DNA of 64,000 bases from Xylanibacter ruminicola (lineage in GTDB: Bacteria > Bacteroidota > Bacteroidia > Bacteroidales > Bacteroidaceae), in contig SUYC01000005.1 in NCBI GenBank assembly GCA_015060625.1, positions 41,270 to 105,269 on the forward strand, written 5' to 3'. The notes below the pieces were generated by a model that was given only the letters and a program-made list of their open reading frames with translations, was not told the origin of the DNA and searched no databases. The position numbers and the translations under genes were made by a program. This document shows, one piece after another, positions 23,709-51,620 of this stretch (position 1 is the first letter of the stretch; the number at the start of each line of letters is the position of its first letter).

Positions 23709-24965
23709 ATGGAAAGAAGAAAAGATAGAATCCTTCTATGCCTGTGCCATCTTTCTGGCAACGAGCAGAAGTTTGTAAACGAAGCATTTGATACCAACTG
23801 GGTTGTGCCCCTTGGCCCTAATGTAAATGGATTCGAGAAAGACCTCGAAGAGTTCGTTGGTCAAAATAAGAGGGTGGTAGCCCTCTCTGCTGGAACAGCA
23901 GCTGTGCATCTTGCATTGCTGAACTGTGGTGTAGGACCTGGTGATGAAGTGCTGGTACAGAGCTTTACGTTCTGCGCATCTAGCCACCCTATTACATATC
24001 TTGGTGCAACGCCTGTTTTCATTGATTCTGAGAAAGAGACATGGAACATGGATCCAGAGTTGTTGGAGAAGGCTATTATCGACCGTAAGGAGAAAACAGG
24101 TAAGTACCCCAAGGCTATCGTGCCGGTAGCACTCTACGGTATGCCGTACAAGATTGACCAGATTATGGCTATCGCCAACAAGTATGGCATTCCTGTGGTA
24201 GAGGATGCTGCTGAGGGCTTTGGCTCTAAGTTCAACGGTCAGGTGCTGGGTACATTTGGTAAATATGGTGTATTAAGCTTTAACGGTAACAAGATGATTA
24301 CTACCTCTGGCGGTGGTGCATTGATTACTGAGAACGAGGACGAGTGGCGAGAGATTATGATGTATGCCACTCAGTACCGTGAAAGCTATCCGTACTACCA
24401 GCACGAGAAGATTGGCTATAACTACCGTATGAGTAATATCTGTGCAGGTATTGGTCGTGGTCAGATGACCATATTAGATGAGCATATTGCCCATCACAAG
24501 AAGGTACAGAAGATGTACGAAGAGCTGCTGAAGGACGTGAAGGGTGTTACCGTACATAGCCAGCCTGAAACAGGAGAGTACGACTCTAACTACTGGCTTT
24601 GCACCATGACCATTAATCCTGACGTGAAGGTTAAGGGGCAGGAGAATGCGTATAAGCAGATTGTTACAGGTGCCGTAGGAGGTGCTGCTGGTGTGATTCA
24701 TGCTGCAGATTCAGCAACAACAGACTGTCAGCCTAATGATAATGTGGAGGCCATGCGTATGGGCTTGGATGCCCTGAATATTGAGAGCCGCCCACTTTGG
24801 AAGCCTATGCATAAGCAGCCTGTTTATAAGAATGCACCTGCATATGTAAATGGTGTCAGCGAAGACCTGTTCAAGATAGGTATGTGCTTACCTGCAGGCC
24901 CATATGTTACAGAGGATGACGTGCATTTCATCTGTGATGCTATCAAGAGTTTGATTAACGAATAA
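23709..24965 (+). CDS. DegT/DnrJ/EryC1/StrS (PglE-like) NDP-4-keto-6-deoxy-sugar aminotransferase
   Basis: EAFDTNWVVPLGPNVNGFE, SAGTAAVHLAL, EDAAE, PLP Lys in SFNGNKMITTSGGG, GYNYRMSN, ESRPLWKPMH. Confidence 0.92.
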   Translation: MERRKDRILLCLCHLSGNEQKFVNEAFDTNWVVPLGPNVNGFEKDLEEFVGQNKRVVALSAGTAAVHLALLNCGVGPGDEVLVQSFTFCASSHPITYLGATPVFIDSEKETWNMDPELLEKAIIDRKEKTGKYPKAIVPVALYGMPYKIDQIMAIANKYGIPVVEDAAEGFGSKFNGQVLGTFGKYGVLSFNGNKMITTSGGGALITENEDEWREIMMYATQYRESYPYYQHEKIGYNYRMSNICAGIGRGQMTILDEHIAHHKKVQKMYEELLKDVKGVTVHSQPETGEYDSNYWLCTMTINPDVKVKGQENAYKQIVTGAVGGAAGVIHAADSATTDCQPNDNVEAMRMGLDALNIESRPLWKPMHKQPVYKNAPAYVNGVSEDLFKIGMCLPAGPYVTEDDVHFICDAIKSLINE

Positions 24966-24983
24966 AAAACGCTGTAATTGGCT

Positions 24984-26077
24984 GTGAATAAGAAAAATCC
25001 CCCCCCCATTTAAGGGTTGAAAGGCAGTCCAACTTTGAGGCTTTAAGACTGCTCTCCATGCTGATGGTACTTAATCTCCATAGTTTTTGGGGATTTAACT
25101 ATGGCAGTGGTATTTGGCAGGCTCTTGACTTCTTTAGGGAAAGCACTTCTATCTGTGCCGTAGACTGTTTCATATTGATTTCAGGCTATTTTTGCATCAA
25201 GTGGAAGTTCCGCAGTTTCTTCAATCTCATATTTCAGATTTTCTTCTATAGCGTAGGGCTCTATCTCGTTGTAGTCGGCCTTGGAATTGTTGATTGGAGC
25301 TTAAAAGAATTCATCATCAGGTTCGGATGTCTGTTTACAAGATCGTGGGGCTTTGCCATCACGTTTGTCCTACTTTACTTCTGTTCACCTGTGCTGAATG
25401 CTTTTGCAGATAGGTCATCGTCTCGTGAGTTGCTTCTATACATTATTGTATTTTTCATAGTCATCAATTTCGTGAGTATTCCTCGTTTCGACCTGTTTAC
25501 CTATGCACTGGTTTACCTCGTCGGTCGATGGTTGAGAAAAATGAATGTAGCAGATCTGAAGTTTCCTTCTGGAAAGGCATATTGGATAGTGACAGTTTTG
25601 ATATTTGTTATCGTCTATGTCCTTTGCTTTTGCGTGTTGCATTTTACGAAGTCTAACGTTCTCAAATGGCCTTTTGGTATCATTGGCTATAATTATGCGG
25701 CACCGTTGGTTATACTACAGGCAGTATCCCTTTTTATGTTCTTTGCACGACTGAGGTTCAAAAGTAACTTTATCAACTGGTGTGCAGCATCAAGTTTTGC
25801 AATCTATCTCATTCACATGCATCCGACCATCAAACAAATAGGATATTATGCATTTACTAAGTCTTTATATGAACAGCCTCCCTTTCTGCATGTTGTTGCT
25901 CTCGTTGCATTTATCTTAGCAGTGTTTTTCGCTTGTATATTCATAGATAAAATCAGAATAGCAATATCTAATGTATGCTTTCTTATGGTAGAATCATTAC
26001 TGAAGCATGTACCAGTAAAAATATTTAAGATAGAAACCTATTTGCCATCATCTATGGCAGTATTGATTTCAAAATAA
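24984..26077 (+). CDS. Acyltransferase family 3 (OafA-like) membrane O-acyltransferase, frameshifted at the C9 tract; intact frame runs 24992-26077
   Basis: The conserved family start ERQSNFEALRLLSMLMVLNLH lies upstream of the first in-frame ATG (25058). Also VDCFILISGYF and SSFAIYLIH. Confidence 0.8.
24999..25007 (+). repeat. C9 homopolymer that separates the acyltransferase start codon from its reading frame
   Basis: GTG AAT AAG AAA AAT C9 ATT TAA stops at 25013. C10 or C7 would read through into RQSNFEALRLLSM. Confidence 0.8.
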
Positions 26078-26078
26078 T

Positions 26079-26714
26079 ATGAAGAATCTAATCCTTATAG
26101 GTGGTGGTGGTCACTGCAAGTCCGTTATGGATGCAGCTGAGAGTGCGGGTTACAGTATTTTTGGAGTGCTGGATGTAGCGGAGAATGTTGGCAAGGAAGT
26201 ACTCTCAACCAAGATTATAGGCACAGATGAAAACATTCCTGCTTACGTTGATAAGGCAGAGTTTGTTATCACTGTTGGTTTCATCAAGAATCCTGCAGTT
26301 CGTATCAAGCTATACAATAAGGTAAAGGAAGCTGGAGGAAAGTTCGCTACAATCATAGCTTCTACTGCATACGTTTCTAAATATGCAGAAATAGGCGAAG
26401 GTACGGTCGTTCTCCATCAGGCATTTGTGAATGCTGGTGCTAGGGTTGGTAAGAATGTCATATTGAATACTGCAACCAACATTGAGCATGATGCAGTTAT
26501 TGGCAATCACTGCCATATTTCTACAGGAACTATGGTAAATGGCGAGTGCAAGGTCGGCGAACGCTGCTTTATTGGAAGTCAGTCCGTTCTCGCCAACTGC
26601 ATTTCTGTTGGAGATGATATTATTGTGGGAGCTGGTTCTTTTGTCAGAAAGACAATTTCTGAAAAAGGTATCTACTCAGGTAATCCTGCTATTCTAAAAA
26701 TTAGGGCAAAATGA
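26079..26714 (+). CDS. neuD: NeuD/PglD-family sugar acetyltransferase
   Basis: LILIGGGGHCKSV, hexapeptide repeats, NTATNIEHD..IG.HCHISTG. Confidence 0.85.
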   Translation: MKNLILIGGGGHCKSVMDAAESAGYSIFGVLDVAENVGKEVLSTKIIGTDENIPAYVDKAEFVITVGFIKNPAVRIKLYNKVKEAGGKFATIIASTAYVSKYAEIGEGTVVLHQAFVNAGARVGKNVILNTATNIEHDAVIGNHCHISTGTMVNGECKVGERCFIGSQSVLANCISVGDDIIVGAGSFVRKTISEKGIYSGNPAILKIRAK

Positions 26715-27721
26715 AACATACAATCATCATAGCAGAGGCTGGCGTGAACCATAATGGTTCCATTGAGCTGGCAAAGCAGCTGGTAGATAAAGCCGTTGAA
26801 GCAGGTGTGGACTTTATCAAATTCCAGACCTTTAAGGCTGCAAAGCTTGTCACTAAGACTGCAAAGCAGGCAGAATATCAGCAGAAGAACATTGGTAAAG
26901 AAGGTGATAGTCAGTACCAGATGTTGAAGAAGTTGGAGCTTTCACCTGAAGACCATGAGTTATTGATTGCTTACTGCAAAGAGAAAGGCATTAAGTTCTT
27001 CTCTACGGCCTTTGACTTTGATAGCATTGAGTATTTGCATTCATTGAATCTGGGCTTGTGGAAGATTCCTTCAGGAGAAGTAACCAACTATCCTTTCTTG
27101 AAGCGTGTGGCTGCCTATAATGAAAAGACCATCCTCAGTACAGGTATGTGTGATATGGTTGATGTTCGTGCAGCTGTAGAGGCTTTATACAAGAATGGTT
27201 TATCAAAGGAGAACCTGATTCTGCTTCATTGCAATACCGAGTATCCTACGCCTTTTGAGGATGTAAACCTTAAAGCAATGGAGGCACTCCGTGAAGAATT
27301 TGGTGTAGAGGTGGGTTATAGCGACCATACAAAAGGTATTGAAGTACCCATTGCTGCTGTAGCTTTAGGTGCAACTGTCATTGAGAAGCATTTCACCCTT
27401 GACCGTAACATGGAAGGACCTGACCATAAAGCCAGCCTTGAACCTGATGAATTGAAAGCGATGGTCTCAGCCATCCGCAACATTGAGAAGGCTGTGGGTG
27501 GCGACGGTACTAAGCACGTGAGTGAAAGTGAACGAAAAAATATCGCCATTGCCCGCAAGAGCATTGTGGCTGCTTGCGATATCAAAGCTGGCGAAACCTT
27601 TACGGAAGAGAACCTGACTGTAAAGCGTCCTGGTAGCGGTATCTCTCCCATGCGTTGGGAAGAGATAGTTGGCCAGAAAGCCAAGAAAGATTTCAATGAA
27701 GACGAGTTGATTGAGCTATGA
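26711..27721 (+). CDS. neuB: Nonulosonate synthase, NeuB/LegI type
   Basis: IIAEAGVNHNGS, KFQTF, KIPSGEVTN, LLHCNTEYPTP, GYSDHT, IEKHFTLD..GPDH.ASLEP, C-terminal SAF domain. Confidence 0.95.
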   Translation: MKHTIIIAEAGVNHNGSIELAKQLVDKAVEAGVDFIKFQTFKAAKLVTKTAKQAEYQQKNIGKEGDSQYQMLKKLELSPEDHELLIAYCKEKGIKFFSTAFDFDSIEYLHSLNLGLWKIPSGEVTNYPFLKRVAAYNEKTILSTGMCDMVDVRAAVEALYKNGLSKENLILLHCNTEYPTPFEDVNLKAMEALREEFGVEVGYSDHTKGIEVPIAAVALGATVIEKHFTLDRNMEGPDHKASLEPDELKAMVSAIRNIEKAVGGDGTKHVSESERKNIAIARKSIVAACDIKAGETFTEENLTVKRPGSGISPMRWEEIVGQKAKKDFNEDELIEL

Positions 27722-28878
27722 GAAAGATTTGTGTAGTAACAGGTACTCGTGCAGAGTATGGCTTGCTGAGCAGGCTGATGGGGATGATTAAGGATTCTGA
27801 CCAGACGCAGTTGCAGGTCATTGTTACTAATATGCACCTAAGTCAAAAATATGGCAATACTTACCAAGAAATAGAGAAAGATGGTTTTACCATTGACTGC
27901 AAGATCCCTATTATAGATCAGAACGCTGAGGACAATGCTGTAACAACGGTAAAGTCAATGGCAACAGCCCTTTCTGGATTTGCTGAAGCATACAATACGT
28001 TGAAACCGGATTTGGTGGTAGTACTTGGTGACCGTTATGAGATACTTGCTGCCGCAACAGCTGCATTGATTGAGCGTATTCCCATAGCTCATCTGCATGG
28101 CGGTGAAGTGACAGAAGGGGCTTACGATGATGCTATTCGTCATAGCATTACCAAGATGAGCCACTTGCATTTCACTTCTACGGAAGAGTATAGAAACCGT
28201 GTGATTCAATTGGGTGAGCAGCCTGATAGAGTATTCTATGTGGGAGCTCCTGGGGTGGAGAATATCAAGAAGTTCCCGCTGATGAGTAAGGAAGAAGTTG
28301 AGGAATCGGTCAACTTCAAGTTGGATGAAAACACTATTTTGGTGACTTATCATCCAGTGACCTTGGGTGACCATACCGCAGGAAAGGACATCAAAGAGTT
28401 TCTAGGTGCGTTAGAAGAGCGCAAGGATTTGCGTGTGTTCTTTACTATGCCCAACTCTGATACAGGTTCTCAAGCTATTGTGGATGCCATCAATGAATTT
28501 GTGGCAAACAACTCAGACAGAGCCATTGCTTATAAGTCGCTTGGAATTAAGCGTTATCTCTCTGTGATGAAATATGCAGGAGCTGTCGTTGGCAATTCTT
28601 CCAGTGGTTTGCTGGAAGTACCTTCTTTTGGCATTCCCACATTGAATATTGGTGATCGCCAAAAGGGTAGGATGGCTGCTGATAGTGTCTATAACTGTGA
28701 GACTGATAAAGAGTCTATCCTGAAAGGTTTGGATGTGATTTTGTCACCAGCTTTTAAAAAGAAAGCGGCAGAAACGCATAATCCTTACGAGAAAGCAAAT
28801 ACAGCAGAAGAGATATTCAAGGTGATTAGCACCTATCCTTTGGAGGAATTAAAACAGAAACATTTCTACGATTTATGA
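27718..28878 (+). CDS. neuC: Hydrolysing NDP-GlcNAc/Bac 2-epimerase, NeuC/LegG type
   Basis: VVTGTRAEYGLL, LGDRYE, HLHGGE, DDAIRHSITKMSHLHF, VTYHPVT, GNSSSG, NIGDRQKGR. Confidence 0.95.
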   Translation: MRKICVVTGTRAEYGLLSRLMGMIKDSDQTQLQVIVTNMHLSQKYGNTYQEIEKDGFTIDCKIPIIDQNAEDNAVTTVKSMATALSGFAEAYNTLKPDLVVVLGDRYEILAAATAALIERIPIAHLHGGEVTEGAYDDAIRHSITKMSHLHFTSTEEYRNRVIQLGEQPDRVFYVGAPGVENIKKFPLMSKEEVEESVNFKLDENTILVTYHPVTLGDHTAGKDIKEFLGALEERKDLRVFFTMPNSDTGSQAIVDAINEFVANNSDRAIAYKSLGIKRYLSVMKYAGAVVGNSSSGLLEVPSFGIPTLNIGDRQKGRMAADSVYNCETDKESILKGLDVILSPAFKKKAAETHNPYEKANTAEEIFKVISTYPLEELKQKHFYDL

Positions 28879-29852
28879 AAATAATAGTTATTGGACTCGG
28901 CTCAATGGGTAAGCGCAGAATACGCCTACTGAGTGAGAATCAAGATATAGAGCTCTTTGGTATAGATAGCCAGGAGAGCCGTTGTGCGGAAGTGAAGGAG
29001 AAGTTTGGCCTGAAATGCTATGCTAGCATTGCTGAGGCTGTTGCAGCAGAACGACCCGATGCTGCTGTGATTAGTACATCTCCTCTTTCTCATTCTTCTA
29101 TCATCAAAGAATGCTTGCAGAACAACCTCCACGTATTCACAGAGATTAATCTGGTGGCAGATGGCTATGCAGAGAATATGGCATTGGCCAAGGAAAAAGG
29201 GAAAGTGCTGTTCCTTTCTTCAACGTTCCTGTATCGTAAAGAGACTCAGACCATCATTGAGAAGGCAAACAAGGCAACCTGCCCTCTGAACTATATCTAT
29301 CATATTGGTCAGTACCTGCCTGACTGGCATCCATGGGAGAGTTACAATAACTATTTTATTGGTAATCCCAGAACCAATGGTTGTCGTGAGATTATGGCCA
29401 TTGACCTGCCTTGGATAGTTACTGCCTTTGGACCTATCAAGAGTGTAAGTGCGGTAAAGAGCAAGAACACTCAGCTAAACATTAACTACAACGATAACTA
29501 CTTGATTACCATTGAACATGAGAATGGTAACAAGGGAGTTTTGGCTGCTGATGTGGTAACTCGTAAGTCCATCCGTCATATTGATGTATATGGTGAATCA
29601 TTCCAGATGTCTTGGAATGGTACAGCAGACTCTTTGCAGGAGTATAATGTTGAGACCAAGGAAATGCAGGCTATCCAGTTTGATGATGCTTCAGAACATG
29701 TGGAAGGTTATGCTGCATTTGTTACGGAAAATCCTTATCGCGAGGAACTGAATGCTTTCTTGGCTCAGATTGCCAACCCAAAGGCCGTTCCAGCTTGGAC
29801 TTTTGAGAAGGACTTTGAGTTGCTGAAGGTTATTGATCAGATTGAAGCATAA
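28875..29852 (+). CDS. Gfo/Idh/MocA-family oxidoreductase
   Basis: VIGLGSMGKRR, HVFTE, GQYLPDWHPWE. Confidence 0.88.
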   Translation: MKIIVIGLGSMGKRRIRLLSENQDIELFGIDSQESRCAEVKEKFGLKCYASIAEAVAAERPDAAVISTSPLSHSSIIKECLQNNLHVFTEINLVADGYAENMALAKEKGKVLFLSSTFLYRKETQTIIEKANKATCPLNYIYHIGQYLPDWHPWESYNNYFIGNPRTNGCREIMAIDLPWIVTAFGPIKSVSAVKSKNTQLNINYNDNYLITIEHENGNKGVLAADVVTRKSIRHIDVYGESFQMSWNGTADSLQEYNVETKEMQAIQFDDASEHVEGYAAFVTENPYREELNAFLAQIANPKAVPAWTFEKDFELLKVIDQIEA

Positions 29853-30802
29853 TGAAGAAATATAAGATAGCTTTTGTAGGACTTGGCTCCATTGCAACAC
29901 GTCACCTAAAGAATGTGCATGCTTATTTGGCATCACAGGGTGATTGTTGCGAGGTGGACTTATACCGCAGTTCTCTAGGTAGACCGTTGGCAGATGAGTT
30001 GCAGCCATTGGTAAGTAACGCTTACTTGTATGCTGATGAGATACCTGCAGACCGCCAGTATGATGTGGTTTTCGTAACCAATCCTACATCAATGCACTAT
30101 GAAACGGTTGAGCGGTTTGCTGCACATACCAAATCATTCTTCATAGAAAAGCCGGTATTTGACAGTTCGAAGGTTGACGAGAAGATATTTGATACCATCA
30201 AGGATATTCCTTCATACGTTGCCTGTCCGCTTCACTATAATGCCGTTCTGCAATATGTAAAGCAGCATGTGAATCCTGAAAATGTGATTTGTGCCAGAGC
30301 TATGTCTTCTAGTTATTTGCCTGACTGGAGACCTGGACAAGACTATCGCAATACCTATAGCGCTCATAAGAATTTGGGAGGTGGAGTAAGTATTGATCTC
30401 ATTCATGAATGGGATTATCTTACTTGGCTCTTTGGGATGCCTGCGGAATGCCACTCCATGATTAACAAGGTTTCCAATTTGGAAATTGATAGCGATGATT
30501 TGGCCATCTATATTGGCAAAAATGATAAGACAACCTTTGAACTTCATTTGGACTACTTTGGAAGACAAACACAACGTACGCTTGATCTGTTTACGGCAGA
30601 TGACACCATCCATTGTGATTTGATAGCTGGTACAGTAAGCTATTTGAAGAAAGGAGAAACCATTAAGCTGGAAAGTGAGCGTAATGCCTTCCAGATGGCT
30701 GAGATTGCACATTTCTTTGGGATAATAAACAATAAAACAATAAACGACAGCAACCCTGAACATGCTTACCAGGTGCTGAAAATAGCAAAAGGAGAATTCT
30801 AA
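29852..30802 (+). CDS. Gfo/Idh/MocA-family oxidoreductase
   Basis: FVGLGSIATRH, FFIEKP, SYLPDWRPGQDYR, GGGVSIDLIHEWDY. Confidence 0.9.
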   Translation: MKKYKIAFVGLGSIATRHLKNVHAYLASQGDCCEVDLYRSSLGRPLADELQPLVSNAYLYADEIPADRQYDVVFVTNPTSMHYETVERFAAHTKSFFIEKPVFDSSKVDEKIFDTIKDIPSYVACPLHYNAVLQYVKQHVNPENVICARAMSSSYLPDWRPGQDYRNTYSAHKNLGGGVSIDLIHEWDYLTWLFGMPAECHSMINKVSNLEIDSDDLAIYIGKNDKTTFELHLDYFGRQTQRTLDLFTADDTIHCDLIAGTVSYLKKGETIKLESERNAFQMAEIAHFFGIINNKTINDSNPEHAYQVLKIAKGEF

Positions 30803-30803
30803 T

Positions 30804-31574
30804 ATGAACATTCTGTTTACATTATGTGGTCGTGCGGGCTCCAAGGGAGTAAAAGGCAAGAATGCCCGAGACTTTCTGGATGTACCCCTAGTTTGGTATT
30901 CTATGGCCAACATTGCTCTGTATATGGAAAAATATGCAGGCGAGGATGATATCAAAATCGTGTTGAATACTGATAGCGAGCCATTGAAAGATTTGGTTAG
31001 ACGTGTAAAGGATGTGCCTGTAACTATCATCCATCGTGAAGAGAGTCTGGCTGGAGATAAGGTACCCAAGGTGGCTGTAATTCTGGATTCTCTGAACAAG
31101 GCAGAAGAGATTTTCGCTCAGAAGTTTGATATGGTGGTTGATTTGGATATAACTTCACCTTTACGTACCGTTCAGGATGTGAAGAATGCCATTGACCGCA
31201 AGAAGCAGAGAAATGATGTGGATGTGGTTTACAGTGTAGCACCATCCCGAAGAAATCCATATTTTAATATGGTAAAAGAGGATAACGGTTTCTTCTGTAA
31301 GGCCATTCCTTCCAACTTCACCACTCGTCAGGAAGCACCTGTATTCTATGACATGAACGCTTCTATCTATGCTTATTCACCTGACGCTTTAAGGAATAAG
31401 GAACATGCTACTTTCTTTAACTCTGGATGTGATGCTGTGGTAATGGCAGATACCGGTATTCTCGATATTGATTCAGAGGAAGATTATGAATTAATGCAGG
31501 TTATAGCTAAGTATCTGTTTGAGAATAATGAAGCGTTTAAAGAAACGTTTAACAAGGCTATAGGATGGAAATGA
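30804..31574 (+). CDS. neuA: Acylneuraminate (nonulosonate) cytidylyltransferase
   Basis: CGRAGSKGVKGKN, LDITSPLR, RQEAP..YDMNASIY, DIDSEED. Confidence 0.88.
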   Translation: MNILFTLCGRAGSKGVKGKNARDFLDVPLVWYSMANIALYMEKYAGEDDIKIVLNTDSEPLKDLVRRVKDVPVTIIHREESLAGDKVPKVAVILDSLNKAEEIFAQKFDMVVDLDITSPLRTVQDVKNAIDRKKQRNDVDVVYSVAPSRRNPYFNMVKEDNGFFCKAIPSNFTTRQEAPVFYDMNASIYAYSPDALRNKEHATFFNSGCDAVVMADTGILDIDSEEDYELMQVIAKYLFENNEAFKETFNKAIGWK

Positions 31575-32605
31575 AGAATCATATCATATCTCAGAATATA
31601 ACATTACTTGATGCGCTTGTACGTATCAACAGTCTAGCCCCAGACCCATTGGTGCTTTTTGTGGTGGATGGCGAACAGCGCATGGTGGGAACGCTTACCG
31701 ATGGCGATTCGCGTCGTGCCTTAATTGCTGGCGCATCCGTCAGTGACAAGGCCGAGCAGATAATGCACCGAGATTTTAATTATATGCGTGCTGATGACGC
31801 AACGGATGTGCTTGAAATCCGTCGGCAGAAAGAGATAAAGATGAAATTGGTTCCTATCCTTGATGAGGAACACCACATTGTGGACATTATTAATCTGGAG
31901 AAGTTCAAGACACGTCTGCCTGTTGATGCTGTAATGATGGCTGGCGGTAAAGGAGAACGTTTGCGTCCATTGACCGAGAAGACTCCAAAGCCATTGCTAC
32001 CTGTTGGTGACAAGGCAATTATCGACCATAATGTGGATCGATTAATTTCATACGGTATTAACCACATTAGTGTGACTGTTAACTATCTGAAGGAACAGAT
32101 AGAGGAACATTATCAGGAACCAAGAAATGGCGTTCAGATACATACGGTACGCGAACCAAAGTTCCTTGGTACAATAGGCAGCATTCGTTTCGTTCCTGAG
32201 TTCTATAACGATACTGTACTGGTGATGAACAGCGATGTGTTTACGAACATTGACTATGAGGACTTTTTCCTCCACTACCAGCAACACGATGCTGAAATGT
32301 CTGTGGCAGCTATCCCTTACAACGTAGCTATTCCATATGGCATCTTTGATCTTGATGGACGTAATATCAAGGGACTGATTGAAAAACCCAAATACAACTA
32401 CTATGCCAATGCTGGCATCTATCTTATTAAGCGCCGCGCACTCGATGAAATTCCTGAAGATACCATGTTCCATGCTACAGATCTGGTGGAAAAGCTCATA
32501 TCTCAAGGAAAAACCGTTATTCGTTATCCACTGAATGGTACTTGGATAGATATAGGCAATCCTCAGGAATACCAGAAGGCGAAAGACTTGGTGAAACATT
32601 TATAA
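31571..32605 (+). CDS. CBS-domain nucleotidyltransferase (PtmE-like sugar-1-phosphate guanylyltransferase)
   Basis: N-terminal CBS pair (GTLTDGDSRR) plus MAGGKGERLRPLTEKTPKPLL, LGTIGS, MNSD, WIDIG. Confidence 0.85.
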   Translation: MKNHIISQNITLLDALVRINSLAPDPLVLFVVDGEQRMVGTLTDGDSRRALIAGASVSDKAEQIMHRDFNYMRADDATDVLEIRRQKEIKMKLVPILDEEHHIVDIINLEKFKTRLPVDAVMMAGGKGERLRPLTEKTPKPLLPVGDKAIIDHNVDRLISYGINHISVTVNYLKEQIEEHYQEPRNGVQIHTVREPKFLGTIGSIRFVPEFYNDTVLVMNSDVFTNIDYEDFFLHYQQHDAEMSVAAIPYNVAIPYGIFDLDGRNIKGLIEKPKYNYYANAGIYLIKRRALDEIPEDTMFHATDLVEKLISQGKTVIRYPLNGTWIDIGNPQEYQKAKDLVKHL

Positions 32606-35159: not shown

Positions 35160-35169
35160 TTTCAAATAT

Positions 35170-36291: not shown

Positions 36292-37515
36292 ATGAACGCT
36301 TCGCTGAAAAGGTTTAGTATAGCTGACTTTGTATATTTGTCAGGGCTTTTTGTAATGCTGATTAGTCAATATCTGACTGTAATAACCAATATTAAATTCA
36401 TTGGGGCAGCACTTTGCTTGATATATCTTCTTTTATCAGGAAATATAAATTTTGATAAAAAATATTATAGATGGATTCTGTCATTTAACGTTCTCTTTCT
36501 TCTTTCTTTTTTATGGTCCCCTAATGTTAAGGTCTCAGCTATTGTATTTTTTTCTCATTTGATTCCATACTACCTGTTGACATTTGCTACGATCAAATAC
36601 TTTAGCAGCTATCAAAAACTAGATACTATTTGTTTTGCAGTTTTTGTTAGTGGATTAATCTTGATTGCATATGTGGCCAATAATATGGATGAATTTGTAT
36701 TGGGTGAACGATTTGGAAGTGATTTAAATGATGATCCAGAAGAAAGGGCGTGGAATGTCAACTCAATAGGAATGTGCTTTAGTTATTCTATTTTTGCAGG
36801 TTTCTTTCTTTTTAACAAAAAAAATGTTGGATTAATCAGGAAAGCGTTGTTCATTTCTTCTTTTATACTTATGGGTTTTGCCGCGTTGTTAACAGGTTCT
36901 CGAAAAGTTCTGTTGATGCTGGTAATCCCAATTTTCTATTTCTCATATAATAGATTTAAAAAACATTTTCTTTTAGGATTAGTGTTACTTTTAGTTCTTG
37001 TAGGTGCCGGTTATTATTTGATAATGAACGTTGAAGCTCTTTATACAACAATTGGCCAACGAACTGAAGATATGTTTGCTGTTCTTTCGGGTAATGGAAC
37101 AGGTTATGAAGACAATTCGCGACAGCTCTTAGCTTTAAAAGGTTTAGAATGGTGGCAAGATAATCCAATCCTTGGCGTAGGAATAAATTGCTTCAAAGAG
37201 TTATCCAATGTAGATCCTCTGTTTAGAGGAAAACATTGGTATGCACACAATAATTATGTAGAGCTTTTAGTTGATGTTGGAGTTGTTGGTTTTTTTCTTT
37301 ATTACAGAGGGGTCTATTATTTATTAAGGGAATCGTTAAAGAAAAAATCAAATGCGATGTCATTCGTTTTTATAATGACAATAATGGTTTTGGTGTTGGA
37401 TACAGGTAATGTGTCTTATTATGACATGCGCGTACAACTCTTAATTGTTATACTTTTTGGAATTCTGAGATTGGAAAAGAAGAAAAATTTAATTAAAAGC
37501 TATGAAGCAAGTTGA
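36292..37515 (+). CDS. wzy: Wzy/O-antigen ligase-family polymerase
   Basis: About 11 TMs, LTGSRK, NPILGVG, HNNYVELL. Confidence 0.8.
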   Translation: MNASLKRFSIADFVYLSGLFVMLISQYLTVITNIKFIGAALCLIYLLLSGNINFDKKYYRWILSFNVLFLLSFLWSPNVKVSAIVFFSHLIPYYLLTFATIKYFSSYQKLDTICFAVFVSGLILIAYVANNMDEFVLGERFGSDLNDDPEERAWNVNSIGMCFSYSIFAGFFLFNKKNVGLIRKALFISSFILMGFAALLTGSRKVLLMLVIPIFYFSYNRFKKHFLLGLVLLLVLVGAGYYLIMNVEALYTTIGQRTEDMFAVLSGNGTGYEDNSRQLLALKGLEWWQDNPILGVGINCFKELSNVDPLFRGKHWYAHNNYVELLVDVGVVGFFLYYRGVYYLLRESLKKKSNAMSFVFIMTIMVLVLDTGNVSYYDMRVQLLIVILFGILRLEKKKNLIKSYEAS

Positions 37516-38752
37516 TATCATCATCTCCAGTGGTATAAACCATATTGGTGGCCCATTGGGTACTTTGAAGAGAATACTCTCTAAGAAGGATTACTTCGAG
37601 AGCCGCGGTTATAAAGTTAGTGTGTTTACTTTCGACTCTGTATTGAGAGGCCCTTATGAGGACATCTCAATGGTTCCTGTTGCCCGTTCACAATCTTCCA
37701 ATGTGACATGGCGGATGAAGGTGTCATCGCTTATTAGAAAGATGGCATTGAAAAGTAAGCTGCTGACAGATATTATTATATGGAAGAAATACAAAAAGAC
37801 GAAAGAGCTTATAAAGTATTACGTTGCATTAGACAGGAAGCCTGATATTGTGGAGCTACACTCTCATTATGATGGCTCTCACTACTATATGTACCGTAAA
37901 GATACTGCTCCAAAAACGGCAGTGTTTCTTCACAGTAATGGTATCCCATACGATCAGGAGCTAAGTACGTTCCCGCTACTGACAAAAACGCTATATTTCA
38001 AAAAATTGAAATCGCAGTTAGATTCGATGATCCGACAGGCAGATCTTTTGGCCTTTATAGCTAATATCGGACAGAAGAACTTCCTTGAACGTTATCCGAA
38101 TCGTTCAAAGGGTGATACTGTTGTAATCCGAAACGGTATCGATGATATAGGAGTCGATCAGATGGCTGTCTATAAGAGTATCAAGACAGAAAGCAATAAA
38201 TCGCCGTTTAAATACCGCCTAGTTACTGTCGGTACGGTTAGCTACAGAAAAGGACAAAGGCTCATTATTGAGACGTTGCATTCTTTGCCTCAGGACGTAC
38301 TGAAGGATATTCATGTGGACTTCGTGGGTGAAGGGCCTGAACGTCCGATTCTGGAAGAGCTTGTTGTAGAATATAATCTTGGTGAACACGTGAAGTTCTG
38401 TGGGAGTGTGCCAAATGTGGAAGTGTACAAGTACCTTGCCCAGAGCAATATCTATATACTAATGAGCAGCAATGAGGGATTGCCGATTTCTATACTGGAG
38501 GCTATGCGTGTTGGTATGCCAGTCATTGGAACAAATATCGCAGGAATCCCTGAGTGTATCGAGAATGGGTATAACGGTTTCCTGCTGGATCCTGACGAGA
38601 AGCAATTGTCAGACCTGCTAAAGAAACTTCCTAAATACGATTGGGAAGAGATGGGAGTCAATTCACGTGCTAAATTTGAAAGAGAATTCACATTTGAACG
38701 GATGATGAGAGAATTTTGTGATATGTATGACAAATTAACAAAAACGAAATAA
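37502..38752 (+). CDS. Glycosyltransferase family 4
   Basis: EGLPISILEAMRVGMPVIGTNIAGIPE. Confidence 0.9.
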   Translation: MKQVDIIISSGINHIGGPLGTLKRILSKKDYFESRGYKVSVFTFDSVLRGPYEDISMVPVARSQSSNVTWRMKVSSLIRKMALKSKLLTDIIIWKKYKKTKELIKYYVALDRKPDIVELHSHYDGSHYYMYRKDTAPKTAVFLHSNGIPYDQELSTFPLLTKTLYFKKLKSQLDSMIRQADLLAFIANIGQKNFLERYPNRSKGDTVVIRNGIDDIGVDQMAVYKSIKTESNKSPFKYRLVTVGTVSYRKGQRLIIETLHSLPQDVLKDIHVDFVGEGPERPILEELVVEYNLGEHVKFCGSVPNVEVYKYLAQSNIYILMSSNEGLPISILEAMRVGMPVIGTNIAGIPECIENGYNGFLLDPDEKQLSDLLKKLPKYDWEEMGVNSRAKFEREFTFERMMREFCDMYDKLTKTK

Positions 38753-38757
38753 TAACA

Positions 38758-40311
38758 ATGAGAGCAGTTTATGTATGTTGTATAGCAGATCCCTATATTG
38801 ATGTTGCTATACGGCTGAAAAAGGAAAAAGGTATAGAACCAATATATTGGATTAGCGATTTGGATTCTACACATGGCGACGTGGAAAATCTGGTAAAAAA
38901 AGAATTTCCAGAAATCACTTACCAGCGTTATTATGATGCATGGCACGGCGTATTTCCTAGGGAGATTGAGAATGCTTCTCATGAAGAGGGGATAGAAATA
39001 GATTTCCTAAAAAAGTTCTACAATGAGGAGTTACAGTCGTTGTCCATGATGGATAGAATGGATTATGACCGTAAGAGTTTCAATATGATGGAACGTGAGC
39101 GTTTTTTTCTGTCATTGGTTAGGAAATGGATGGCTTTTTTCAAATTGTATAAACCGGATATAGTTATAGCATCCAATAATCCCCATAGAGTTTTTGACCA
39201 TGTTCTTTATCTTGTGTGCAAATACAAAGGCATTCCTTATATTACCTCTATGTATACTCAGATGGTGGGAAGAATGTTCATGCTGGAGGATTTCCGCAAA
39301 CCAAACATCATAGGTGAGATAATGGATGAAGCTTATGCCCAGAATTTGGGAAAGGAAATAGATGTAACATTGCTACCAAGAGATATACAAGATAATTATA
39401 ATAGGCTTCATAAGGATTATAAGGATGCAAAACCCTATTATATGAACTCTTTTGATAAACTGAACTCCAAGAATAAAAACTATTTCTTCCTTATGCGTCG
39501 GTTTATATCTGATCACAACCTTCTCATTGGCGAAGACAAAATTCTTAAGGGGCAGAAACATACAATTTATAAAGAGGGGAAGCGAAGCCCAGAAGAATGG
39601 AACTTCTCACTCTGGGAATGGTATTCAATGAGAAAAGGGGCAGACAAATATAAGAAGTCTCTGTTTAATCATTACAACGCGATATCAGAAGAGGCACCGC
39701 TTGATGTACCATACGTGGCTTTCTTCCTGCACTATCAGCCCGAAGAAAACACCTGCCCCAATGCAGGCATGTTTGCCAACCAGTATCTGTGCATACTTTC
39801 CCTTCTGAGAAGCCTGCCTGATAATGTGATGATCTACGTGAAGGAGCATCCGCACCAGTTTATGTCACATATGCAAGGTCAGACAAAGAGAATCAAGGAA
39901 TTCTATGATGACTTGGCTGCAATCCCCAGGGTCAAGCTGATAAATTTCAGTATGGACTCCTTCTCGCTCATGGCCAATGCGATGGCAGTTGCAACTGTTG
40001 CGGGAACTGCCGGGTGGGAAGCTGCTGTGAAAGGGAAACCCGTTATTGTCTATGGTATGTCATGGTACGAACGTATGAAAGGTGTGATGAGAGTCACTGA
40101 CGATGAATCTGCGAAGCACGTCTATGAGTTCATTCAGAACTATAAGTTTGACAATCAGGCCGTGCTCGCCTATCTCTATACGTTTGCCCAAAAGTCCTAT
40201 ACAGGGTATAACTATAAGGGCTATAAGGAACTGACGGGATATTCCCACGAAGAGTCTGTTGAGAATATCTATAATGCATTAAATGCTGTAATTTTCAAGA
40301 ATAGCAAATGA
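38758..40311 (+). CDS. KpsS/LipB-like capsule biosynthesis glycosyltransferase
   Basis: FFLHYQPEE, YVKEHP, TVAGTAGWEA..KGKPVIVYG. Confidence 0.7.
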   Translation: MRAVYVCCIADPYIDVAIRLKKEKGIEPIYWISDLDSTHGDVENLVKKEFPEITYQRYYDAWHGVFPREIENASHEEGIEIDFLKKFYNEELQSLSMMDRMDYDRKSFNMMERERFFLSLVRKWMAFFKLYKPDIVIASNNPHRVFDHVLYLVCKYKGIPYITSMYTQMVGRMFMLEDFRKPNIIGEIMDEAYAQNLGKEIDVTLLPRDIQDNYNRLHKDYKDAKPYYMNSFDKLNSKNKNYFFLMRRFISDHNLLIGEDKILKGQKHTIYKEGKRSPEEWNFSLWEWYSMRKGADKYKKSLFNHYNAISEEAPLDVPYVAFFLHYQPEENTCPNAGMFANQYLCILSLLRSLPDNVMIYVKEHPHQFMSHMQGQTKRIKEFYDDLAAIPRVKLINFSMDSFSLMANAMAVATVAGTAGWEAAVKGKPVIVYGMSWYERMKGVMRVTDDESAKHVYEFIQNYKFDNQAVLAYLYTFAQKSYTGYNYKGYKELTGYSHEESVENIYNALNAVIFKNSK

Positions 40312-40940
40312 AGAATCTGATTATTATTGGTGCGGGCGGAATGGGCAGAACCGTCTACAGTAATGCACTCGAAAGTGTTGGCTATGGAGAATCTTATACT
40401 GTTAAGGGATTCATAGATGACAATCTAAATGCCTTGGATGGTTTTCCTAATTATCCGCCAATTATAGGCACCATCAAAGACTATATTCCACAAGAAAATG
40501 ACGTGTTTGTCTCTAGTATTGGGGGAGCTTCCCGTCGTCCGTGTATGGAAGAAATAATCAGTCGTGGAGGAGAGTTTATAGAGCTGATTCATAAGACAGC
40601 ACGAATCTATAAGAATGCCAAACTTGGAAAAGGAAACTTTATCGGCGCTTATTCCGTCATAGGCAATGATGCCGTGGTGGGTGACTACAATATGATACAG
40701 GCTTATTCTGTAATCGGACATGATGCTAAAATAGGCAGTTGGAATCGCATAGACACTCATGTGACTTGTGTGGGCGGTATTGTTATCGAAGACGAAGTGA
40801 ATATCCACACGTCAGCAGTCATCAATCATGGTGTGACAGTAGGCAGTAGTGCCCATGTCGGAGCATTGAGTTTTGTAATACGTAAGGTAAAGGCGGGAAC
40901 TACGGTAATGGGGAATCCTGCAAAAAAAATAGAAATATAA
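40308..40940 (+). CDS. NeuD/PglD-like acyltransferase
   Basis: LIIIGAGGMGR, hexapeptide repeats, VIGHDA.IG, MGNPAK. Confidence 0.85.
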   Translation: MKNLIIIGAGGMGRTVYSNALESVGYGESYTVKGFIDDNLNALDGFPNYPPIIGTIKDYIPQENDVFVSSIGGASRRPCMEEIISRGGEFIELIHKTARIYKNAKLGKGNFIGAYSVIGNDAVVGDYNMIQAYSVIGHDAKIGSWNRIDTHVTCVGGIVIEDEVNIHTSAVINHGVTVGSSAHVGALSFVIRKVKAGTTVMGNPAKKIEI

Positions 40941-40963
40941 TTTTAATTTTAAAATAGAATAAT

Positions 40964-41197
40964 ATGGAATTGAAAGATTTTATCCAGAATTTCGCAGAGC
41001 AGTTTGATGATACGCCTGCAAGTGAGTTTACAGCTGAAACTGTTTTTCATGAGTTAGATGAGTATTCATCGCTGATAGCACTGTCCATCATTTCGATGGT
41101 TGACGAAGAGTATGGGGTCATGCTTAGCGGTAATGAAATGAAGGCGGCTGTTACTATTGAAGATTTGTATAACACCGTAAAGAGTAAGGCAGAGTGA
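40964..41197 (+). CDS. Acyl carrier protein
   Basis: 77 aa, acidic, with phosphopantetheine Ser in EYSSLIAL. Confidence 0.85.
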   Translation: MELKDFIQNFAEQFDDTPASEFTAETVFHELDEYSSLIALSIISMVDEEYGVMLSGNEMKAAVTIEDLYNTVKSKAE

Positions 41198-41940
41198 TGT
41201 ATAATCCATTCTCATTGGAAGGAAAGAGCATTCTGATTACTGGTGCTGCTGGTGGCATTGGCCGTGCCATGGCCATCGAGTGTGCCAAGATGGGAGCAAG
41301 ACTTTTCCTGACGGATGTTGTAAAGGAAGGACTTGACGCAACGATAAGCCTGTTGGAAGGTGAAGGCCACAAAAGCATTGTGGCAGATCTGACCGATGAC
41401 GAGCAGCTTGACTCGCTGGTGTCAGCTCTTCCAGCCTTGGACGGCATGGTGAGCAATGCAGGTGTCACAAAGCCTGCTCCTGTGAAATTTATCAAGAAAG
41501 AGGATTTGCAGCGAATTGTTTCCATCAATGCAATGGCTCCAATCTGTCTCACCCAGAAACTGCTGAAGAAGAAAAAGTTCAATGACGGCGGCTCTTTGGT
41601 ATTTACCGTTTCTATAGGTGGCGTCTATACAACTGCACCTGGCAATGCTATGTATGGTGCATCGAAAGGTGCTCTTCAGGTGTTTGTCAAGAATGTGGCC
41701 TTGGAGATGGCTCCTAAACTGCGTTGCAACAGCATCAATCCAGGCATGGTGAATACTGGGCTGGTGAAGGGTGGTATCTACTCTGATGAAGACAAGGCGA
41801 AGGACCTTATGACTTATCCGCTAAAAAGGTATGGTGAACCAAGAGACATCGCACTGGCTGCGGTTTATCTGCTGTCTGACGCTTCGTCGTGGATGACAGG
41901 TCACTCTCTTATCATAGACGGTGGAAAAACGCTTTATTAA
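41197..41940 (+). CDS. FabG-like SDR oxidoreductase
   Basis: ITGAAGGIG, SNAG, YGASK, NSINPG. Confidence 0.9.
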   Translation: MYNPFSLEGKSILITGAAGGIGRAMAIECAKMGARLFLTDVVKEGLDATISLLEGEGHKSIVADLTDDEQLDSLVSALPALDGMVSNAGVTKPAPVKFIKKEDLQRIVSINAMAPICLTQKLLKKKKFNDGGSLVFTVSIGGVYTTAPGNAMYGASKGALQVFVKNVALEMAPKLRCNSINPGMVNTGLVKGGIYSDEDKAKDLMTYPLKRYGEPRDIALAAVYLLSDASSWMTGHSLIIDGGKTLY

Positions 41941-41948
41941 AAAAAGAC

Positions 41949-42674
41949 ATGTTATTAGAAAATAAAATTGCTATCGTGACAGGAGCTGGCCGAGGCATAG
42001 GTCGCGCTATCGCAGAGAAGTTTGCCAGCGAAGGTGCTATTGTCTATGCTGCAGATGTCCGTGAAGATGATTTGAAATGGACGGAGGAAAACACCTCTGT
42101 GCATAGCATTACTTTGGATATCTGTGACTTTGCAGCCGTTAAGAACGCTGTGATGGCCATTAAGAAGGAACATGGTCAGATAGATGTGCTCGTCAACAAC
42201 GCTGGACTTATCTCATACGAGATGATGAGCATGATAGACTATGACAAGTTTCGCAAAATGATTGAAGTGAACGTCGTAGCATTGATACACCTAATGCAGA
42301 TGGTGGCGAGAATTATGACACGCCGAAACGAAGGTTCTATCATCAACATGGCAAGTATGGTGGCAGTAAAAGGCGCTGCTGGCCAATTGTCGTATGCAGC
42401 AACGAAAGGTGCGGTCATCTCTGCTACCAAGTCGGCTGCGAAAGAGCTGGCCAACAATCATATCCGTGTGAATGCAATTGCTCCTGGTATGGTTGGGACA
42501 GAGAGGTTTAAGGCCGTCTTGAAAGAAAAATTTAGTCAAAAAATCAATGACATACCCTTTGGTCGCTTGGCAGAACCAGAGGATATAGCCAATGCTGCAC
42601 TCTATCTGGCTTCCGATATGTCATGTTACGTGACAGGTCAGGTGTTGGGTGTGGATGGTGCTGCTGTCATCTAA
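41949..42674 (+). CDS. FabG-like SDR oxidoreductase
   Basis: VTGAGRGIG, VNNAG, YAATK, NAIAPG. Confidence 0.9.
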   Translation: MLLENKIAIVTGAGRGIGRAIAEKFASEGAIVYAADVREDDLKWTEENTSVHSITLDICDFAAVKNAVMAIKKEHGQIDVLVNNAGLISYEMMSMIDYDKFRKMIEVNVVALIHLMQMVARIMTRRNEGSIINMASMVAVKGAAGQLSYAATKGAVISATKSAAKELANNHIRVNAIAPGMVGTERFKAVLKEKFSQKINDIPFGRLAEPEDIANAALYLASDMSCYVTGQVLGVDGAAVI

Positions 42675-42686
42675 AAAACAATAGTT

Positions 42687-43757
42687 ATGGCTTTATTTAC
42701 AATTAAGAACGTAAAAATCAAGGGTGTTTCAGCCGCTGTACCTGAGACAAAAGTATCTACATACGATTACGACTTCTTCAGTAAGGAAGATGCGGATACA
42801 TTCATCAAGACTGTAGGAATCGAAAATAGGTATGTGGCTCAGAATGGAGAATGTGCTTCTGACCTGTGTAAGTTAGCGGCCGACAAACTGATTGAAGGCT
42901 TAGGCTGGGAGAGAGAGAGTATTGGTATTCTTTCTTTTGAGTCTGTTACGGCAGATTATCGCACTCCGCCAACCTCATGCATCTTGCAGGATAGGCTTGG
43001 ACTGAGTACTGACTGTATGACCTTCGATCTGCCTATGGGATGCTGCGGTTTTCTCTATTCTGTGTGTGTAGTAGGAAAGATGATGCAGACAGGCGACGTG
43101 AACCGTGCTATTTTGCTGATAGGAGATACTATCACAAGGATGGGTTCGCCAAAGGATAAAAGCAGACTTCCCTTGTTTGGTGATTGCGGTACGGCTGTAG
43201 CCTTGGAGTATGACGAGAGTGCAGATGACATTATCATTGACATGAACTCATATGGTAAGGGTTTTGAGGCTCTGATTACACCGCACAGCGGTTTCCGCCA
43301 TCAGGTGACACCAGAGTCCTTTGAGTATGAGGACTTCGGCAACGGAGTGGTTCGTGCCCCGGTACACTCGCTAATTCAGGGCATGGACGTGTTTGCCTTT
43401 GCTATCTCCAGACCACCAAAGTCTATTAAGGCTCTGTTTGAGAAGTATGGTATCGACAAGGAAAAGGATATAGATTACTTCCTTATTCATCAGGCCAATA
43501 AACTGATTGTCGATAAGGTGGTGAAGAAATCTGGTCTTGACCTTGCTAAGACACCATCCAACATCAAGAATTTTGCAAACTTAGGTGGGGCATCTATCCC
43601 TATGCTGATGGTGTCGGAGATTGCAGATGACCTGAAGGGTAAGAAACTGAGTCTGATGGCTTCCGCTTTTGGCCTTGGTCTGACATGGGGTACGATGCTT
43701 TTCAAGACAGAGAATCTTATCGTACCAGAATTAGCTTTCTATAACAAGGAGGATTAA
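42687..43757 (+). CDS. 3-oxoacyl-ACP synthase III (FabH-like)
   Basis: Cys-His-Asn triad: MGCCGFLY, IHQAN, FANLGGASIP. Confidence 0.9.
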   Translation: MALFTIKNVKIKGVSAAVPETKVSTYDYDFFSKEDADTFIKTVGIENRYVAQNGECASDLCKLAADKLIEGLGWERESIGILSFESVTADYRTPPTSCILQDRLGLSTDCMTFDLPMGCCGFLYSVCVVGKMMQTGDVNRAILLIGDTITRMGSPKDKSRLPLFGDCGTAVALEYDESADDIIIDMNSYGKGFEALITPHSGFRHQVTPESFEYEDFGNGVVRAPVHSLIQGMDVFAFAISRPPKSIKALFEKYGIDKEKDIDYFLIHQANKLIVDKVVKKSGLDLAKTPSNIKNFANLGGASIPMLMVSEIADDLKGKKLSLMASAFGLGLTWGTMLFKTENLIVPELAFYNKED

Positions 43758-43761
43758 GCGT

Positions 43762-45141: not shown

Positions 45142-45148
45142 AAAGAAT

Positions 45149-45388
45149 ATGACAAATTTGGAAAAATTGAATAACATCTTTGCAGAGGTGTTTAATGTAG
45201 AAGTGTCTGCTCTGAATGCAGATTTTGATAACAAAAGTGTTGAAGGATGGGACAGCGTTCATCAGCTTAGTCTGACAAGTGCTGTCGAGGATGAGTTTGA
45301 CATCATGCTTGATGGTGAGGATATTCTGGGATTTACCTCATACGAGAATGCCAAGGAAATCCTAAAGAAGTATGAAATATCTCTTTAG
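45149..45388 (+). CDS. Second acyl/aminoacyl carrier protein
   Basis: 79 aa with WDSVHQL phosphopantetheine motif. Confidence 0.85.
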   Translation: MTNLEKLNNIFAEVFNVEVSALNADFDNKSVEGWDSVHQLSLTSAVEDEFDIMLDGEDILGFTSYENAKEILKKYEISL

Positions 45389-45444
45389 AGTAAGATTCAT
45401 ATTATTAAGTTGATTACTCCAGATTATTAACCGTATTTTTTATT

Positions 45445-46925: not shown

Positions 46926-46945
46926 TTGTAAAAAATAGTAGAGTT

Positions 46946-47560: not shown

Positions 47561-47561
47561 T

Positions 47562-50411: not shown

Positions 50412-51620
50412 ATGTTCAATTTAGACAAGTTTATAAGCGATTCGGTCACATACAGACTGGAGAGCATGTTTAAGGGTGACATCGAGGCAAATGCTGAGAA
50501 GCTCACTCTGGAGATTAAGGGTAAGAAGGTATGTGTGATTGGTGGTGCTGGCTCTATCGGTTCCAGCTTCATCAAGGCGGTGCTGCGGTTTGAGCCGGCA
50601 TCAGTGGTGGTGGTTGACCTGAACGAGAATGGGTTGGCAGAGCTGGTGCGCGATGTGCGCTCAACGAACGGACTGTATGTGCCTGATGAGTTCCGCTGCT
50701 ACACGCTGAACTTTGCTGACCCCATCTTTGAGCGCATCTTCCGTGAGGAGAAGGGATTTGATATTGTGGCGAACTTCTCAGCACACAAGCATGTGCGTTC
50801 GGAGAAAGACCGCTATAGCGTACAAGCGTTGATAGAGAACAATGACATCAAGGCGAAGAAGCTGATGGATTTGTTGACGGTATATCCACCGAAGCACTTC
50901 TTCTGCGTTTCGACGGATAAGGCAGCCAACCCTGTGAACATCATGGGCGCCTCGAAGCGCATCATGGAGGACTTGGTGATGGCGTATAATAAATATTTTA
51001 AGGTGACTACAGCTCGCTTTGCGAATGTGGCATTCAGTAACGGTTCGCTGCCTGACGGATGGATTCATCGCTTGCAGAAGAAGCAGCCGCTGGCTGCACC
51101 AAGTGACGTGAAGCGTTACTTCGTTAGCCCTGAGGAAAGCGGTCAGATTTGTATGCTGGCTTGTATCTTGGGTAATGGGGGAGAGGTGTTCTTCCCGAAG
51201 TTGGGTGAAGACCAGATGTTGACGTTCTCTTCGATTTGCGACAAGTTCGTGACTGCTAATGGGCTGGAGAAAGATCCTTGCTCTTCGGATGATGAGGCCA
51301 AGCGCAAGGCTGCTGCACTGGGATGGGATGACAACAAGTATCCTACGGTGTACTTCGGTTCGGACACGACAGGTGAAAAGGCTTACGAGGAGTTCTATGT
51401 GCCTGGTGAGAAGATTGACATGCAGCGCTTCGCAGCTCTGGGCGTGGTCTGCCAGACCACTCGCCATGAAATGGCAGAGGTGAATGGATTCTTTGATAAA
51501 CTGGAGGATATCTTTGCTAAAGAGAACTTCACCAAGGCTCAGGTGGTAGAGGCGATCAAGGAGTTTATCCCGAATTTCGAGCATGAAGAGAAAGGGAAGA
51601 ATCTGGATCAGAAAATGTAA
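50412..51620 (+). CDS. NDP-GlcNAc 4,6-dehydratase (polysaccharide biosynthesis protein, PglF/LegB role)
   Basis: GGAGSIG, SAHKHVRSEKD, VSTDKAANP, MGASK, RFANVAFSNGSL. Confidence 0.82.
   Translation: MFNLDKFISDSVTYRLESMFKGDIEANAEKLTLEIKGKKVCVIGGAGSIGSSFIKAVLRFEPASVVVVDLNENGLAELVRDVRSTNGLYVPDEFRCYTLNFADPIFERIFREEKGFDIVANFSAHKHVRSEKDRYSVQALIENNDIKAKKLMDLLTVYPPKHFFCVSTDKAANPVNIMGASKRIMEDLVMAYNKYFKVTTARFANVAFSNGSLPDGWIHRLQKKQPLAAPSDVKRYFVSPEESGQICMLACILGNGGEVFFPKLGEDQMLTFSSICDKFVTANGLEKDPCSSDDEAKRKAAALGWDDNKYPTVYFGSDTTGEKAYEEFYVPGEKIDMQRFAALGVVCQTTRHEMAEVNGFFDKLEDIFAKENFTKAQVVEAIKEFIPNFEHEEKGKNLDQKM

Follow-up and report, generated by a model that had tools for sequence, protein, structure and literature searches.

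The window, the whole stretch of 64,000 nucleotides analyzed here, carries a capsule operon with a gene for a 517-aa glycosyltransferase of the PF05159 (KpsC/KpsS-like) family. The encoded protein is probably the transferase that places the CMP-activated Leg-type nonulosonic acid of the locus onto the capsule repeat unit. We favor this reading because of the family, the fold, the CMP-binding motif and the gene context, including linkage to NeuB. The same evidence supports the first-pass annotation, which had proposed a transferase for a Leg-type or epimeric nonulosonate. The idea is not original: it is that of the published Gtr59/KpsS1 proposal (PMC4487303), and our finding is this published idea applied to a new Bacteroidales locus. 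Modestly new are the invariant QPE motif found instead of QXXXD, the breadth of the family, and the weak association of nonulosonate type with transferase clade.

The capsule operon and its nonulosonate module

The locus is a Bacteroidales-type Wzx/Wzy capsule locus carrying a Leg-type nonulosonate pathway. A UpxY/NusG-like gene at 22465 precedes its genes, all of which are on the + strand. We ran a Pfam scan on every long + strand ORF between 22465 and 51620, and the features used below are as follows.

23709..32605, + strand: Leg-type CMP-nonulosonate biosynthesis module (Pfam, NCBIfam)
33624-35159, + strand: Wzx-like flippase (Pfam, NCBIfam)
35134-36204, + strand: pyruvyl transferase (Pfam, NCBIfam)
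36292-37515, + strand: Wzy polymerase (Pfam, NCBIfam)
37502-38752, + strand: GT4 glycosyltransferase (Pfam, NCBIfam)
38758..40311, + strand: PF05159 (KpsC/KpsS-like) GT-B glycosyltransferase gene, 517 aa (ORF, Pfam, AF2 model, fold matches)
40308-40940, + strand: NeuD-type acyltransferase, directly after the PF05159 gene
40308-45876, + strand: acyl-carrier/FabG/FabH/adenylating module
45149-45388, + strand: acyl carrier protein, 79 aa
45445-45876, + strand: hexapeptide acyltransferase
46898-47560, + strand: PglC-like initiating phosphoglycosyl transferase (Bac_transf; Pfam, NCBIfam)
47502-48665, + strand: 387-aa protein, directly after the initiating transferase (Atlas structure search)
50412..51620, + strand: Polysacc_synt_2 dehydratase (Pfam, NCBIfam)

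The module begins with a LegC-family aminotransferase, an Acyl_transf_3 protein, a NeuD/PglD-type acetyltransferase and NeuB, which scores 514.7 bits on TIGR03569, exceeding the model cut-off. It continues with a hydrolysing NeuC-type 2-epimerase, two Gfo/Idh/MocA oxidoreductases, a CMP-nonulosonate synthetase and a CBS-nucleotidyltransferase (Pfam/NCBIfam). A gene for a nitroreductase-family protein stands between the CBS-nucleotidyltransferase and the flippase. The sugar of the locus would be Leg, or an epimer made by the two Gfo/Idh/MocA oxidoreductases. Their genes are adjacent (28875-30802, +) and directly upstream of the CMP-nonulosonate synthetase gene, and the same trio occurs in a related locus, L013. 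ElaA (Gfo/Idh/MocA) and ElaC (SDR) carry out the C8 epimerization of CMP-Leg. The arrangement here is reminiscent of that pairing but has two Gfo-type enzymes, and ElaA was not among the PDB search matches for either of them. The Polysacc_synt_2 protein is the probable 4,6-dehydratase of the nonulosonate pathway; a homologue directly adjoins the transferase gene in L013 (L013:11579, 679 bits) and in L014 (L014:11554, 684 bits).

The locus encodes two glycosyltransferases and an initiating enzyme. Across the scanned ORFs, Pfam returned the single GT4 that had been counted in the first-pass annotation and, in agreement with it, no classical sialyltransferase. The 517-aa protein with HYQPE and KEHP motifs described there is also borne out, with an intact ORF that has an ATG start and zero internal stops. 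Its N-terminus aligns in register from residue 1 with 20 homologues, and the start codon is therefore credible. A gap of 5 nt separates the start of the gene from the GT4 stop, and its 3' end shares 4 nt with the gene that follows. This packing places it inside the operon, the Wzx/Wzy capsule operon in which NeuB lies 11 kb upstream.

We also observed two gene sets further downstream. The segment 40308-45876 encodes the NeuD-type acyltransferase, two FabG-like SDRs, a FabH-like KAS III and an adenylating enzyme alongside the carrier protein and hexapeptide acyltransferase, and probably builds an unusual N-acyl group on one amino sugar of the locus. The 387-aa protein had zero Pfam or NCBIfam matches. 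In the Atlas structure search its model was akin to BNR/sialidase-like beta-propellers (TM 0.77), not to a GT fold, which speaks against a hidden glycosyltransferase; going by this model, it could be a glycan-trimming or editing enzyme. Genes for an NTP_transf_5 protein, a metallo-beta-lactamase-fold protein and the Polysacc_synt_2 dehydratase lie 3' of it.

Linkage to nonulosonate synthases

We assessed the gene context of relatives in 80 related loci (GTDB, one genome per species, flanks of at most 10 kb). A NeuB homologue lay within 10 kb in 58 of the 80. Where at least 9 kb was available on both sides, the count was 39 of 46, at a median distance of 3.7 kb and in many phyla. Five of the seven full-flank loci without NeuB were examined: three had NeuB just past the flank and two had it on another contig. 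A sample of 201 genomes from the same order contained the family in 5 genomes and NeuB in 95, and all five family carriers had NeuB on the same contig, 1-11 kb away. The genome of the window (3.72 Mb, 97% complete) gave one PF05159 match, which is the gene studied here, and one NeuB match, in the same operon.

The order sample also bears on a different explanation, that the nonulosonate is attached by the GT4 or by an unrecognized protein and that the PF05159 protein adds another residue or acts on another glycan, as suggested for SpsB. The family was absent from 90 of the 95 NeuB-positive genomes, and other nonulosonate transferases must therefore exist in Bacteroidales. In B. subtilis, spsB lies next to a Leg pathway and its deletion did not reduce spore Leg (PMC7439481), so gene adjacency can mislead. 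The genetically validated Pse and Leg transferases of Tannerella are TagB-like (PMC5420450), and the genome of the window has one TagB-like gene (L091:9337-10650, 437 aa, contig C4). We rejected this gene as a rival transferase because it lies in the PEP mutase module of another capsule locus. That second locus (genome G000, contig C4, L091:5009-10650) encodes a fused cytidylyltransferase-PEP mutase, a TPP decarboxylase, an aminotransferase, a nucleotidyltransferase and the TagB-like protein, and is probably a phosphonate (aminoethylphosphonate-type) decoration module. The position of the TagB-like gene directly after the other four fits a phosphonate transferase. GT4 enzymes use NDP-sugars and are not known to use CMP-sugars, which argues against the GT4 of the locus. 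GT38 and Maf were not found in the genome. GT42, GT52 and GT80 were not found either, in searches that had no positive control and are weak negatives. Taken together, we consider it unlikely that another enzyme attaches the nonulosonate, and we retain the PF05159 protein as the candidate.

The synthases adjoining the relatives were 20 PseI-type, 14 Leg/Neu-type (12 with NeuC; that of the window is a 15th) and 24 divergent. We built a quick IQ-TREE maximum-likelihood tree, excluding the partial rows L023, L050, L072 and L080. Nonulosonate-type labels changed 35 times on the tree, compared to 42.4 in shuffles, a weak signal. The tree shows transferase clades that, as far as these sequences indicate, follow taxonomy more than nonulosonate type. 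Four Prevotellaceae/Bacteroidales transferases (L011, L013, L014 and L034) have branch lengths of 0.1-0.24. The synthase beside them is PseI-type in L011 and Leg/Neu-type in L013, L014 and L034. This pattern suggests rapid donor switching or donor promiscuity. Since close relatives stand beside different synthase types, donor choice seems to switch easily, as reported for two Tannerella enzymes (PMC5420450).

The closest relative, L001, is 74% identical and syntenic for the CMP synthetase, the CBS-nucleotidyltransferase and the GT4. It sits on an 11-kb contig (CACYCJ010000153.1) of a MAG labelled Lachnospiraceae, which suggests that the contig was misbinned or that a Bacteroidales capsule locus has been transferred. 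A homologue with 54% identity occurs in the culturable Bacteroides heparinolyticus. L003 and L004 (46% identity) had no NeuB within 10 kb. The capsule locus of L003 encodes a TIM-barrel C-C bond lyase and a split transketolase (L003:12478-13614, L003:2660-4465), and the branch may use a different keto-sugar donor.

Fold, motifs and proposed mechanism

The protein matched Pfam PF05159 (Capsule_synth) with E 1.9e-12 and 47.7 bits against a gathering cut-off of 20; the match was confined to residues 348-480, equal to profile positions 179-306 of 310. PF05159 was the only Pfam match, without a classical sialyltransferase model (GT38, GT42, GT52, GT80) and without PF04464 (Glyphos_transf/TagB), and zero models matched in the NCBIfam scan. 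Clustered at 50% identity, the family comprises 802 clusters when the cut-off is E < 1e-30 and 6,981 when it is E < 1e-3. Most members are 500-520 aa, and the family spans Bacteroidota, Pseudomonadota, bacteria of the candidate phyla radiation and Archaea. Public databases label the relatives 'capsular polysaccharide export protein, LipB/KpsS family', a misleading name that the present annotation corrects. Neither Gtr59 nor the B. fragilis protein EIY96989 could be connected with the family through these cluster names.

KpsC was the only meaningful match in a sequence search of the PDB (E 3.5e-5 with the single sequence). With a 21-sequence profile it was found at E 5.4e-8, in an alignment that spans the HP motif. 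An AlphaFold2 model built on the 21-sequence alignment (pLDDT 88.6, pTM 0.89) consists of two Rossmann-like domains, with an inserted helical region spanning about residues 184-310. Foldseek against the PDB gave only generic GT-B and 2-epimerase matches (TM 0.2-0.3), low scores that are probably due to domain orientation. We also compared the model with 48,161 representative chains in a wide VIA-align search, which is independent of Foldseek. The best matches were the KpsC beta-Kdo 2,7-transferase (6mgd, Z 13.0) and the KpsC 2,4-transferase (6mgb, Z 12.9), followed by the Kdo-transferase domain of WbbB (5fa0, Z 12.0) and, at rank five, KrkA (9yfx, Z 10.0), with 264-292 residues aligned. KpsC, WbbB and KrkA all take an ulosonic acid from a CMP-sugar.

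Three short stretches of the protein carry the residues discussed below.

39181..39186, + strand: Pro142-His143 in the N-terminal domain, with a candidate active-site His (77/77 sequences)
39730..39744, + strand: HYQPE motif, residues 325-329 (counts over 77 sequences)
39841..39852, + strand: KEHP, the (K/R)XHP CMP-binding motif, residues 362-365 (HMMER alignment to the VKVHP stretch of KpsC)

The (K/R)XHP motif binds CMP and is common to sialyltransferases (GT29, 38, 42, 52, 80) and retaining Kdo transferases (GT99, GT107) (PMC12887879). KEHP (K362-E-H364-P365) fits it exactly; (K/R)XHP alone does not define the sialyltransferase families. A second motif, QXXXD, is absolutely conserved in retaining Kdo transferases, with the Gln in carboxylate binding and the Asp as covalent nucleophile (PMC10148158, PMC12887879). 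KpsC has Q156-T-F-N-D160 and its HP at 194-195 (PMC10148158). We set the register of Q327 with QXXXD by motif spacing to HP. The Gln-to-His spacing is 37 residues here (Q327 to H364) compared to 38 in KpsC, and Q327 follows a beta-strand, so the register is well supported.

We counted conservation over 77 relatives from Bacteria and Archaea (25-74% identity). P328, E329 and P334 were kept in 77/77, Q327 in 74/77, K362 and E363 in 75/77 and H364 in 71/77. Pro142-His143, G416, G419 and E421 were also invariant. Because they are conserved over this range, the HYQPE and KEHP motifs are, judged by the alignment, not chance. The position of the QXXXD Asp, N331 here, was T (57), S (11) or N (5) in 74/77 relatives and never D. 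The protein thus lacks the nucleophilic Asp of the QXXXD that GT99, GT107 and GT140 conserve absolutely. The residues indicate that the family has retained the Gln and a predicted CMP site while arranging the putative catalytic carboxylate differently. The term KpsS-like, applied earlier to this protein, holds for the PF05159 family, the KpsC-like fold and (K/R)XHP. It does not extend to orthology with KpsS, because the QXXXD nucleophile that defines Kdo transferases is missing.

These results also speak to a Kdo transferase of the KpsS/KpsC/WbbB/KrkA kind, one that would use CMP-Kdo to attach Kdo to the repeat unit or a lipid anchor. In its favor, the enzymes matched best in structure and in sequence are without exception CMP-Kdo transferases, the public name of the relatives includes 'LipB/KpsS family', and L003 and L004 lack a nearby NeuB. 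The Bacteroidales host, like any Bacteroidales cell, makes CMP-Kdo for LPS, and this donor is therefore available. Against this stand the T, S or N at the QXXXD Asp position, the single PF05159 gene in the genome, which leaves no KpsC partner, and the Wzx/Wzy type of the locus. A Kdo donor would also leave the cross-phylum linkage to nonulosonate synthases unexplained. We regard Kdo transfer as very unlikely. A protein without catalytic function, or one whose activated donor, CMP-linked or not, is something other than Kdo or a nonulosonate, would agree with the atypical motif at the nucleophile position. Yet this reading is highly improbable given an intact frame, tight operon packing and the strict conservation of active-site-type residues in 77 bacterial and archaeal sequences.

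In the CMP-nonulosonate transferase reading that we prefer, a cytoplasmic GT-B enzyme would take the CMP-activated Leg-type nonulosonic acid from the upstream gene products and add it to the undecaprenyl-diphosphate-linked repeat unit. The unit would be begun by the PglC-like enzyme, extended by the GT4, flipped by Wzx and polymerized by Wzy. Selection of the acceptor would fall to the large N-terminal domain, which contains the helical insert, and donor identity would follow the local module, not the transferase clade. Because the Asp of QXXXD is absent, the KpsC mechanism cannot be transferred unchanged to this protein. Q327 may bind the C1 carboxylate of the sugar, and the invariant E329 may replace the Asp as catalytic carboxylate, whether by serving as the nucleophile of a double displacement or in some different capacity. 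The absent Asp and the invariant QPE thus pose a mechanistic question, a Glu-linked adduct versus a single displacement. Tentatively, the ~510-aa 'QPE' proteins might form a separate GT family, distinct from GT99, GT107, GT118 and GT140 (from KpsS1 of GT118 by description), in which a Glu two residues after the Gln supplants the Asp and donor choice (Pse, Leg, divergent) switches easily.

Dedicated transferases for Leg-type sugars are scarce: in the literature consulted, the evidence consists of the Tannerella knock-outs, predictions such as Gtr59 (PMC5420450, PMC4487303) and one characterized Pse enzyme, KpsS1 (cited in PMC12887879). If confirmed, a Leg-type transferase from a gut/rumen commensal would aid glycoengineering and the prediction of capsule structures from genomes.

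Comparison with known systems

The nearest precedent is Gtr59 of A. baumannii KL12, a PF05159 protein assigned to acinetaminic acid transfer by Kenyon et al. 2015 (PMC4487303). Genes of the Gtr59/KpsS1 type adjoin nonulosonate modules in Acinetobacter, E. coli O108 and O165, Photobacterium, Sphingobium and Bacteroides fragilis CL05T00C42, with Gtr59-like genes in E. coli O108, Photobacterium profundum and B. fragilis CL05T00C42. Gtr59, KpsS1 and KpsS2 of Acinetobacter and the Gtr59-like B. fragilis gene were proposed as nonulosonate transferases (PMC4487303). As with Gtr59, we observed a Wzx/Wzy locus in which a PF05159 gene neighbors a module for nonulosonate biosynthesis, such modules being Leg-derived (lga/aci/ela-type) or Pse, and predict a nonulosonate transferase. 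The likeness noted here is one of family and gene context, and the role of Gtr59 is itself only predicted.

KpsS1 of A. baumannii KL2 founded the family GT118 and is reported to be a retaining transferase of Pse5Ac7Ac (Walklett et al. 2024, cited in PMC12887879). This report agrees with the earlier suggestion that KpsS-like proteins are linked to pseudaminic acid transfer. Like the protein studied here, KpsS1 is PF05159-type and encoded beside a nonulosonate module, and according to that source its use of a CMP-nonulosonate has been shown biochemically. As far as the same description goes, the two are set apart: KpsS1 is reported to be 30% identical to E. coli KpsS and uses a Pse donor, whereas the PF05159 match here covers only the C-terminal third, the QXXXD Asp is absent and the donor would be Leg-type.

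The retaining beta-Kdo transferases KpsC (GT107), the WbbB N-domain (GT99) and KrkA (GT140) share with this protein a GT-B-like fold, (K/R)XHP and a Gln at near-equal spacing to HP. Unlike them, it lacks the Asp nucleophile and has an invariant Glu two residues after the Gln. It is also ~190 residues longer, with the helical insert at roughly 184-310, and is linked to nonulosonate genes, not to an ABC-transporter capsule system. The capsule-anchor system pairs KpsS with a two-module KpsC, whereas here a single PF05159 gene stands in a Wzx/Wzy-type locus.

In Tannerella forsythia, Tanf_01245 and TFUB4_00887 were identified by knock-out as Pse and Leg transferases (PMC5420450). These enzymes are TagB-like, ~445 aa in length, and act on a protein O-glycan, whereas the protein here has no PF04464 match. 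Like it, they come from Bacteroidota, carry an HP motif, are encoded beside CMP-Pse or CMP-Leg genes and show donor switching between close relatives.
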